Shown here one piece after another: positions 1-3,000 of a DNA stretch of 64,000 nucleotides. Each line of letters begins with the position of its first letter. Positions within the stretch are counted from its first letter, which is position 1. Made by a program: the position numbers. The stretch comes from Escherichia coli (GTDB lineage: Bacteria; Pseudomonadota; Gammaproteobacteria; Enterobacterales; Enterobacteriaceae), in the NCBI RefSeq assembly GCF_016903815.1, contig NZ_CP069974.1; one strand, given 5' to 3'.

Positions 1-3000
1 CACCTTCAGCCTCATGGTGATATGAAACCAGTCCAGCACATGCGTTGACTCAGGGTACATACCGAACTGGAGGTCCCTGAGATTATCCGCGCCGTCGGAC
101 AGAAAAAATATCTGCTGGTTGGCCTGCATTCCCTGCGCTGAAAGGTGGGTCATGAGCCTGCGTTCCGGATGACAGTCATCCTTCTGAACAAAACCGAAGC
201 GGCGGGTGTCAGCAGGCGCACCAACGGAAAAAGACTTCCCGGCAATAATTTCAAAATTACGCTTTTTGTCATCCCGATCGCGAACATAACCACCATCTAT
301 ACCCACCACAAGCGGTTTTCCTGGCCTGGGCAGGTTCCCCCAGTCGCGGGGGCAGCCGGAAAGAAAACCTGAATGAGCTTCAGCCTCAGCGTCAAGACGC
401 TGCGCCACCTGGCATAAATGATTCCTCACCGTTGAGGCATTCAGGCTGTGGCCCACCGGCAGAATATCTTTCAGCAGACGAGTCGTCATTTCATAGGAGA
501 TCATCGAGGCCCAGCGGGTTTCAATATATTTCAGTGCCGGGTGAGAATAATCGCCGGCCCAGTCGCTGAGCAAACTGACTGTCTTTGTATCACTCTCTTC
601 ACAACGGCACCGGTACACCCGAAGCCCGGATACCGGAATAACGCCAAACAGCGTCCGGTACCGTATTTTCTGTTTGCCTTTGATTCTGCGCGCAGCAAGG
701 CAGTGAGGGCACCGGATATGGTGTTGAGTATATTCGTCTGCCTGCAGCTGGACCACCGACTGCTGGACCGTATTCAGCAACAGCTTGGATTCTGACACCG
801 ATAATCCGATGTCGTTCCGGGTCTCCCCTGATTTCTGGATTGTCATCAGTTCCTCCGTTCGACTGGAGCCTGATTCATCGGTGATGACTATCTGGAGCGT
901 CAGTTGCATCATTGCCTCCTGCTGTGGTGGATGACTATCTCCCGGCTACTGGTTGTTCATCTGGTGACGAAGCTTATAATATGTGGAAACGCCAAGGCCC
1001 GCATGGTCGCAGGCGATCCTGAGCCTGACCCCTCTGCTTCTGAGTGCGTCAATTTCCTGGATCTTTTTGATATCGGCGCCGGGGCGCCCTGTTTTTTCAC
1101 CCCGTGCTTTTTTCGCGGCGATGCCGTCGGCCTGCCTTTCCTTCAGTAAGGCTCGTTCAAACTGGCTGAATGCCGACATCATGTGCAGCTGCAGTTCCTG
1201 CATCGGATTGTTTGTGCCGGCGCTGAACGTCAGCTGCTCTTTCAGAAAAATAAGGGTAACGCCCTGGTCACGAAGCCGGGTGGTGACAGCGCACATATCC
1301 GACATATTCCGGCAAAGGCGATCGATGGAATGAACCAGAAGCGTATCACCAGGGCGTAATTGCCCCAGGAGTTCCTGTAACCCCGGGCGGTTTGTGTCCT
1401 TCGCGCTGGCATGCTCAACACAAATTTTATCAGGCTGAAAACCCGCCTTTGACAATGCCTCTTCCTGACGGGCCGTATTCTGATCGGCCGAGCTTACCCT
1501 GATGTAGGCATATTGCACGCAAAACCTCCGGAAGGTCTTTAAACATCATAGAGATTTAAAGAATAATCCATAAACACTGATTTAGGGAGGTTTATAGACA
1601 TTTTTTCGGGGATCTGAGAGGCATGCTGAAAACGTATACCTTTATAGACATCAGTCAGCGACGACGGCCCAGCCAGATAACTTCAGGCTCCAGTACCGGA
1701 GATGCAAGGTCGAGCCTGCTCAGTTGCCGGTTGATTTTGTGGCGGTTGAACCTGACAGCATCCAGGTCGTCAGCAAAAGGGCGGATCTCGCCGACCGTTG
1801 TTTCATCATCCGCATTAACGATAGCTTCAAGAAACGCCAGGGTTTTATCGAACTCATCCGCAGCTGTGGCTCCGGGCATACCATGGCCGCTTATACAAAA
1901 CGGCGCTTTCAGCGTAGAGTTTTCATAAATGGCCTCAACACGAATGTCATGAAGCCAGTGCTCAAAGAAATTGTATTCATAGGTAAAGCGATCGCCAGCA
2001 TCAAAAGCAAAATCATCAATCACGACCCGGAACGGATTATCGACAAAACCGATGCCTCCTTCGTAGGAGATACCGTAATCTTTGCCATAAATGTGAAATT
2101 GATGGAGATGGTCGTCCCCCCAGCCCTGCACTATCTGGAAAATGAAGTGAAGCGCGGCCAGTGACGTGTCGGCAGCAATTCTCAGCCGACGCCAGACCAT
2201 CGGACTGACTCCATGAACTGCTATTTTGATGACGTAGATCTTCATAGTCAGCAGGTATTGTTATGAAATGATGGTGGTTATTTTAACCCCTGTAGATGGC
2301 ATCATTCGATGGCTGCCCCGAGGTTTTTCATGCTCTCCATCTTGTAACAATCAGGCATACCACGGAGCTTGTTTGCTTCAATCCGGGGTGACTCAAGTAC
2401 TTCAACCAGCTTCTTTTTCAACTGTTCACGTACCGTCGAGCCCAGCTTTCGCCATTCCTTTAGTGCCCGCTCGTCAAAATCCAGAAAATACGCCATCAGA
2501 GTTCATCCAGCGTCACACGTACTGGCTTAGGCTTACGAAGCCGTTCTTTCACTATCTCCACAAGTTCAGCATCTTCATCACTCAGGAGTGTCTGTTTGAA
2601 CGGCAAGCGTTCATTGTCAGCGATATACTCGAGCATGAGACGAAGCGCTTCAGAAGGAGTTACGCCCATTTTTTCAAGCGCGGCGTAAGAACGCGCTTTA
2701 AGTTCATCGTCAATACGCAGGTTAATGCTACCCATGTCTTACACCTCTTGTAATTACAAATGTCATTACAAGTATCGCACTACAACATGCTTAGGGCAAG
2801 TCACGAAGGAAGTCAGAAAGTAGTCGTAAGAACGGTGATCACTGTCCGCTTTGTGCCAATAGCGGACATTGCTGGCTCATGGTATGTTAGTTTAAGGAGG
2901 CAGGTTATGCCCTGTATTTCGCTGTGGTATAATAGTTGCGCAATTGATACAAGGGAGCGTTACATCGTGAAAATTGTTTTCGAGGTTAATGGAAAGAAAG

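Follow-up and report, generated by a model that had tools for sequence, protein, structure and literature searches.

Gene content of the locus

The window analyzed here, a stretch of 64,000 nucleotides from an Escherichia coli contig (NZ_CP069974.1), starts approximately 514 bp inside a copy of ISKpn19, which is followed by the remains of a relBE toxin-antitoxin locus in a prophage fragment, and then by IS26 (Table 1). Positions 1 to 2338 are 99.9% colinear with other plasmids (e.g., L001, positions 3802 to 6668), and in the colinear records PGAP names the product WP_001493761.1 an "ISKra4-like element ISKpn19 family transposase," identifying the transposase of the element. The whole of ISKpn19 is present in the sibling plasmid L001, where it forms a 2,852-bp unit bounded by 26-nt inverted repeats that are 85% complementary (3288 to 3313 and 6113 to 6138), its right end corresponding to position 2338 of the window. 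Across six loci, this unit keeps both of its ends while its flanks form four different pairs, and it thus behaves as a constant entity. A PADLOC scan of the pRiA4b ORF-3 family protein encoded within it yielded nothing significant.

Table 1 Features of the ISKpn19-relBE-IS26 region, in window coordinates
Feature	Position	Strand	Remarks
ISKpn19 (ISKra4 family), right-hand 2,338 bp of the ~2,852-bp element	1..2338	-	Colinear with annotated plasmids
tnpA of ISKpn19, 5' part (909 nt)	1-909	-	DDE transposase gene
Serine recombinase (resolvase-like), ISKpn19 passenger, 190 aa	946..1518	-	PF00239, E=1.2e-39; PGAP "recombinase family protein," WP_001493762.1
pRiA4b ORF-3 family gene inside ISKpn19, 196 aa	1655..2245	-	PF07929 (PRiA4_ORF3), E=8.3e-32; WP_012477564.1
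Hybrid 64-aa ORF	2496..2302	-	RelE residues 1-52, 12 IS-encoded residues, and TGA stop
ISKpn19 terminal inverted repeat, outer end 2338	2312..2338		Encodes ~9 of the 12 non-RelE tail codons
relE remnant, pseudogene	2339..2496	-	158 of 288 nt: codons 1-52 plus 2 nt
Qin-like lambdoid prophage fragment between ISKpn19 and IS26	2339..5221		K-12 matches 2339-2873 and 5071-5220
relB antitoxin gene, intact	2735..2496	-	79 aa; RelB-family profile matches
relO operator, palindrome	2747..2772		Two 12-bp repeats in the relBE promoter region
Truncated ydfV (Qin prophage gene), divergent from relB	2760..2879	+	PGAP "ydfV ... missing C-terminus," L005 8511-8630
IS26, right-hand boundary of the prophage fragment	5222..6041	+	14-nt terminal repeats at 5222 and 6041

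The product of relB spans the whole Pfam RelB profile (PF04221, residues 1 to 79, E=1.8e-32) and scores 131.3 bits, against a cut-off of 96, with the NCBIfam equivalog NF008412 over the same residues. It belongs to the RelB/DinJ family (NF008412, TIGR02384, PF04221) over its full length, from the RHH N-terminus to the C-terminus that binds RelE. Compared with K-12 RelB, 78 of its 79 residues are identical, N68K being the sole change, and it represents the allele WP_000534857.1, which is also that of the intact relBE locus on CP101002, a plasmid of E. coli ET120. The gene is preceded by its own operator, relO, which is described in PMC3507626 and PMC2812701. The two operator arms (2747 to 2758 and 2761 to 2772, 12 nt each) are 92% complementary, and the repeat search also returned a 12-bp direct repeat at this site. 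The segment between 2736 and 2858, operator included, is identical to K-12. A scan of positions 2150 to 2950 for the sigma-70 consensus returned no promoter at threshold; the region is nonetheless identical to the experimentally studied K-12 promoter.

The stop codon of relB overlaps the ATG of relE by 1 nt at position 2496. A toxin-like ORF thus lies directly downstream of a RelB-family gene and is translationally coupled to it, the arrangement expected of a RelE-type gene. Residues 1 to 52 of this 64-aa ORF are those of E. coli RelE (PDB 4FXE chain D, 4V7J, and 2KC8; tblastn), and the sequence beyond is unrelated. At the DNA level, the remnant is 100% identical over positions 2339 to 2496 to both K-12 relE and the intact plasmid relE of CP101002. 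Neither the RelE C-terminus, nor the 3' end of relE, nor hokD was found elsewhere in the 64-kb window using blastn and tblastn. These results agree in most respects with a preliminary description of the locus, which had reported an intact relB of 79 codons with an operator-like palindrome, about 52 RelE-like codons in the relE frame, and no downstream frame for the RelE C-terminus. Aligning the translation of 2302 to 2496 with RelE, as proposed there, showed that identity ends at residue 52. The distance of 23 bp given between the stop codon and the next gene has to be corrected to 56 bp (stop at 2302 to 2304, ATG at 2245).

The truncated relE, relB, the truncated ydfV, a variable two-gene module, and a 150-bp tail make up a 2.9-kb fragment of a Qin-like lambdoid prophage. 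The homology with the K-12 Qin relBE region has 98.9% identity over positions 2339 to 2873 and fades between 2859 and 2873, within the ydfV remnant; the tail is 91% identical to K-12 Qin. As in K-12, ydfV is found on the divergent side of relB, and identity to the K-12 counterparts amounts to 98.9 to 100% for relB, its promoter/operator, and the initial 158 nt of relE. In contrast to K-12, the window lacks relE codons 53 to 95 and the downstream hokD, the locus is flanked by ISKpn19 and IS26 on a plasmid of the IncF type, and the slot between ydfV and flxA is filled by another two-gene module. This module (2874 to 5056) encodes a HEPN-like/GNAT-like pair, and positions 2843 to 5083 are 99.9% identical to the prophage slot in ExPEC chromosomes, e.g., those of S88 and APEC O1. 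A PADLOC scan of the two genes yielded nothing significant. On its far side the fragment is bounded by IS26, whose transposase ORF occupies positions 5267 to 5989.

The junction between ISKpn19 and relE

The homology with K-12 ends abruptly at position 2339, in codon 53 of relE, and the last base before the break (2338|2339) is also the outermost base of ISKpn19. The 12 tail codons of the 64-aa ORF (MESMKNLGAAIE) and its TGA are read from the ISKpn19 end, mostly from its inverted repeat. The shared last bases of ISKpn19 (...ATGCTCTCC) are followed by relE in the window and three sibling plasmids. In pOXA-181-like plasmids and in an IncN NDM plasmid, a truncated Tn3-family tnpA takes the place of relE, and in pL1 this place is taken by IS26 minus its first ~38 bp. 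As an identical ISKpn19 end precedes unrelated flanks (relE, ΔtnpA, ΔIS26), a mobile element terminates at position 2338. The comparison with related plasmids that the preliminary description had called for therefore placed the breakpoint at the end of ISKpn19. The truncation, which it had termed a recombination scar, stands; the notion of a generic recombination or deletion breakpoint gives way to that of an ISKpn19 terminal boundary in a qnrS1-ΔtnpR-ISKpn19 platform.

The ΔISEcl2-qnrS1-ΔtnpR-ISKpn19 platform is widespread among resistance plasmids of the Enterobacteriaceae (PMC5034289). The siblings L001, L003, and L005 conform to it, with the same ISKpn19 copy and with qnrS1 and a truncated resolvase gene immediately upstream of the position equal to the start of the window. 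The difference lies at the far end of ISKpn19, which meets relE here, whereas it meets a Tn3-family ΔtnpA or IS26 in 51-kb pOXA-181-like plasmids and others.

We consider it very probable that relE is no longer functional, having been cut by an IS, i.e., that a captured Qin-like relBE locus was joined inside codon 53 to the end of ISKpn19. The relBE locus of a Qin-like lambdoid prophage fragment was already present on plasmids beside IS26 when the outer end of ISKpn19 joined relE inside codon 53. Codons 53 to 95 and hokD, all of which lie 3' of the break, have been lost, and the relE frame now continues for 12 codons into the ISKpn19 inverted repeat before reaching a stop. An intact counterpart exists on CP101002, which is 100% identical over positions 2339 to 2858 and has the same RelB allele, fragment tail, and IS26 junction. 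Its relE is full length (95 aa) and followed by ISSen3, and the protein of its central module matches the PADLOC defense candidate HEC-08, in contrast to the HEPN-like/GNAT-like pair of the window. The captured fragment thus occurred on plasmids with a complete relBE, and the ISKpn19 junction was formed later.

No target-site duplication was found around any of the six ISKpn19 copies, and at this locus the flanks (...ACGACC and ATCTTG...) differ. Furthermore, the other flank of ISKpn19 is a truncated Tn3-family resolvase gene adjoining qnrS1, not the remainder of relE. The join is therefore not a simple insertion. We also searched for the reciprocal junction using a chimeric 300-nt query composed of the 3' part of relE and the other ISKpn19 end; neither the 72,556 plasmids of PLSDB nor the 5,426 complete E. 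coli genomes contained a sequence covering it. One match over 60% of this query corresponded to an ISKpn19 copy next to a groEL remnant, extended by chance.

The missing duplication, the unrelated second flank, and the lack of a reciprocal junction in both collections are what would be expected if a plain deletion or illegitimate recombination had removed the 3' end of relE without any mobile element. This is nevertheless very unlikely, because the breakpoint is an IS terminus to the base, because that terminus is found in three independent other contexts, and because a deletion would hardly have ended there by chance. Moreover, an IS-mediated adjacent deletion or IS-IS recombination accounts equally well for the missing duplication, which argues for a presumably rearranged ISKpn19 copy and not against the identity of the IS. 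Three routes to an ISKpn19-mediated junction fit the data equally well. The qnrS1-linked ISKpn19 could have transposed into relE within the same molecule, deleting the DNA in between; a cointegrate could have formed and then lost one of its halves; or two copies of ISKpn19 could have undergone homologous recombination.

Coding capacity of the remnant and distribution of the junction

A-site mRNA cleavage by RelE involves Lys52 or Lys54 as the general base and Arg81 as the general acid, and Tyr87 as well (PMC5027501); Tyr87 is located on the C-terminal helix α3, formed by residues 85 to 95 (PMC3507626). The 64-aa product has kept Lys52, together with the N-terminal ~55% of the fold. Because Lys54, Arg81, the helix bearing Tyr87, and about 40% of the fold at its C-terminal end are missing, we infer that it would be unable to act as an mRNA interferase. 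Nor does it match the RelE/StbE toxin profiles over their full length. It scores 19.9 with PF05016 (ParE_toxin), below the GA of 23, and 23.6 bits with TIGR02385, below the cut-off of 27.9 and over positions 2 to 56 of 88, while the 95-aa RelE of K-12 passes TIGR02385 with 54.7.

The preliminary description had itself raised the alternative that the 64 aa make up a complete RelE-family toxin of naturally short length, which would form a working addiction module with RelB. The overlap of its start with the relB stop and the 52 RelE residues, Lys52 among them, would fit such a toxin, and one GenBank record names the ORF a "RelE/ParE family toxin." However, its divergent tail is the terminal inverted repeat of an IS, both curated cut-offs are missed with only the N-terminal part of the profile matched, and Lys54, Arg81, and Tyr87 are lacking. 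In addition, intact alleles of 95 aa on other plasmids have a 5' part with 100% identical DNA, and the public PGAP annotation labels the remnant "relE ... incomplete; missing C-terminus," i.e., a pseudogene. A short toxin is thus highly improbable, and the earlier view of relB as an orphan beside a 3'-truncated relE holds.

The distribution of the ISKpn19-relE junction was determined with a 300-bp probe centered on it and required at full coverage in PLSDB, and with a 601-bp probe required at a coverage of at least 80% in complete E. coli genomes. The first probe detected the junction in 81 plasmids, and the second detected it in 54 genomes. Its carriers include Escherichia, Klebsiella, Shigella, Salmonella, and Enterobacter and are 99.8 to 100% identical around the junction. 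One and the same junction recurs in the 54 genomes and in 81 complete plasmids that were sequenced independently and come from at least five genera, which refutes a chimeric join by assembly or sequencing artefact and makes its probability negligible. Among the plasmid matches listed for an intact relBE query, all partial matches that retain relB start at the same base (query positions 131 to 527), and one other partial match consists of the 3' end of relE alone (query positions 1 to 92). The sequence comparisons point to a single ancestral event, which would have spread with the resistance module and be common to at least 81 plasmids.

In most siblings, the right-hand sequence departs from that of the window at ~2867 and continues into a BCCT transporter region; the arrangement found in the window recurs only in one PLSDB plasmid (Klebsiella variicola CP114364) and one E. 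coli plasmid (pCR-0268_2). Through RefSeq/PGAP the truncation is already known as a relE pseudogene, and it is an ordinary IS-generated scar. In the literature on ISKpn19 with relB or relE, the platform is described and one paper mentions a flanking "relB-relE"; none discusses the truncation.

Possible functions of the orphan relB

According to PMC2812701, RelE is a co-repressor that enhances repression, and RelB is a substrate of Lon. The orphan relB is probably still transcribed and weakly self-repressed, since the RelE co-repressor is absent. It is predicted to give the plasmid no addiction or postsegregational killing function. A broken toxin gene next to an intact antitoxin gene is the pattern that survivorship would predict. 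Breaks would be survivable in the toxin gene only, as losing the antitoxin first would be lethal, and this can explain the intact state of relB and of its promoter and operator.

Orphan antitoxins are known as anti-addiction modules, one example being the chromosomal ccd of Erwinia, which acts against the ccd of the F plasmid. The relB gene described here resembles them in that it encodes an antitoxin whose cognate toxin is defunct and which could, in principle, neutralize the homologous toxin of another replicon. It differs from them in being a recent by-product of a plasmid IS junction, whose neutralizing role and selective benefit are hypothetical. Identical RelE is encoded at ~1,227 chromosomal loci of E. 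coli (among 5,426 genomes) and on 682 PLSDB plasmids with intact relBE. As the same RelB allele partners identical RelE elsewhere and identical RelE is encoded this widely, it is plausible, as the preliminary description had suggested for chromosomal relBE homologs, that the orphan RelB could neutralize RelE from the Qin prophage or from a co-resident relBE plasmid.

Such cross-talk might also have caused relB to be kept by selection, as an anti-addiction gene directed against the RelE of Qin prophages or relBE-stabilized plasmids. Besides the abundance of identical relBE and the RelB allele shared with intact plasmid loci, the state of the gene, which is intact and near-identical to K-12 along with its promoter and operator, would be in keeping with this possibility. 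Nevertheless, the carriers are so nearly identical at the junction (99.8 to 100%) that there has been no time for decay, and the intactness of relB is therefore no evidence of selection. Survivorship, moreover, accounts for the pattern without any later function. We thus regard maintenance by selection as unlikely. The benefit supposed in that case is that the host would tolerate, or lose, Qin prophages or relBE-stabilized plasmids.

It is similarly doubtful that relB, in the absence of co-repression by RelE, may be strongly expressed, with RelB serving as an anti-addiction factor and its promoter reading through into the ISKpn19 genes. The ISKpn19 genes have the same orientation as relB; transcription of this kind would start at the relB promoter, cross the relE remnant, and increase the expression of the recombinase and transposase of the element. 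Between the relB promoter and these genes, the minus strand showed no terminator-like site.

In counts of plasmid maintenance functions, the locus should not be scored as a working relBE addiction system. Tools that detect toxin-antitoxin systems would overcall it, since relB and a RelE-like ORF are both detected. The ISKpn19-relE junction is a handy lineage marker for one family of qnrS1 modules, which often carry blaCTX-M-15 and are spreading among Escherichia, Klebsiella, Shigella, Salmonella, and Enterobacter. Beyond its correct annotation, the truncated relE locus is of little consequence; if it is true that the orphan RelB neutralizes the RelE of other replicons, competition between plasmids could be affected.

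Plasmid backbone and insertion sequences

Because it carries an IncF-type transfer region, 99.9% identical to E. coli plasmids, the window belongs to an F-like conjugative plasmid (coordinates in the table). The records matching this region also list a group II intron (ltrA) and IS150. All five complete copies of IS26 point the same way, a pattern typical of an IS26-built multiresistance region. In sibling plasmids, erm(B), mph(A)-mrx(A), qnrS1 and blaCTX-M-15 lie in the vicinity.

Features of the window
Feature	Position	Details
Inverted repeat, 11 nt	2840-2871	arms CACTGTCCGCT / AGCGGACATTG
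Two-gene module	2874-5056	ORFs 2967-3929 (+) and 3945-4946 (+)
IS26, complete, five copies	5222-6041, 10482-11301, 21154-21973, 34991-35810, 41364-42183	one shared orientation
IncF-type conjugative transfer region	39001-64000	traI, traC, traB, traD, traG

ISKpn19, both at positions 1-2338 and in the compared plasmid loci L001, L006, L007 and L009, has two passenger-like genes in addition to its transposase gene: one for a serine recombinase of 190 aa, the other for a pRiA4b-ORF3 protein. No target-site duplication was found at any of the six ISKpn19 copies examined. GATCT-like strings occur in several of the flanks, which could reflect a target preference or chance. At 5139-5140 of L007, the E. 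coli plasmid pL1 (CP071712), the ISKpn19 end adjoins an IS26 whose first ~38 bp are missing, and with them the terminal inverted repeat. Such a truncation is unusual; PGAP nevertheless annotates a full-length transposase.

A possible boundary between phage modules

Homology to K-12 Qin, the ExPEC prophage, CP101002 (plasmid of E. coli ET120) and p720632-type plasmids breaks at approximately 2859-2867, at the inverted repeat. The repeat may be the point at which phage modules were joined by recombination.

The two-gene module and its slot

The module is 99.9% identical to a lambdoid-prophage slot of ExPEC chromosomes. Its domain hints, HEPN_RES_NTD1 (E=1.9e-4) and, at the C-terminal end, GNAT (E=9e-4), are weak and under the Pfam cut-off; the ORFs may form an uncharacterised defence or toxin-antitoxin pair. 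In CP101002 the same flanks enclose a gene with a match (E=4.9e-145) to HEC-08, a PADLOC defence candidate; in K-12 Qin, ydfV-flxA lies between them. The slot thus looks like a hot spot for cassette swapping.
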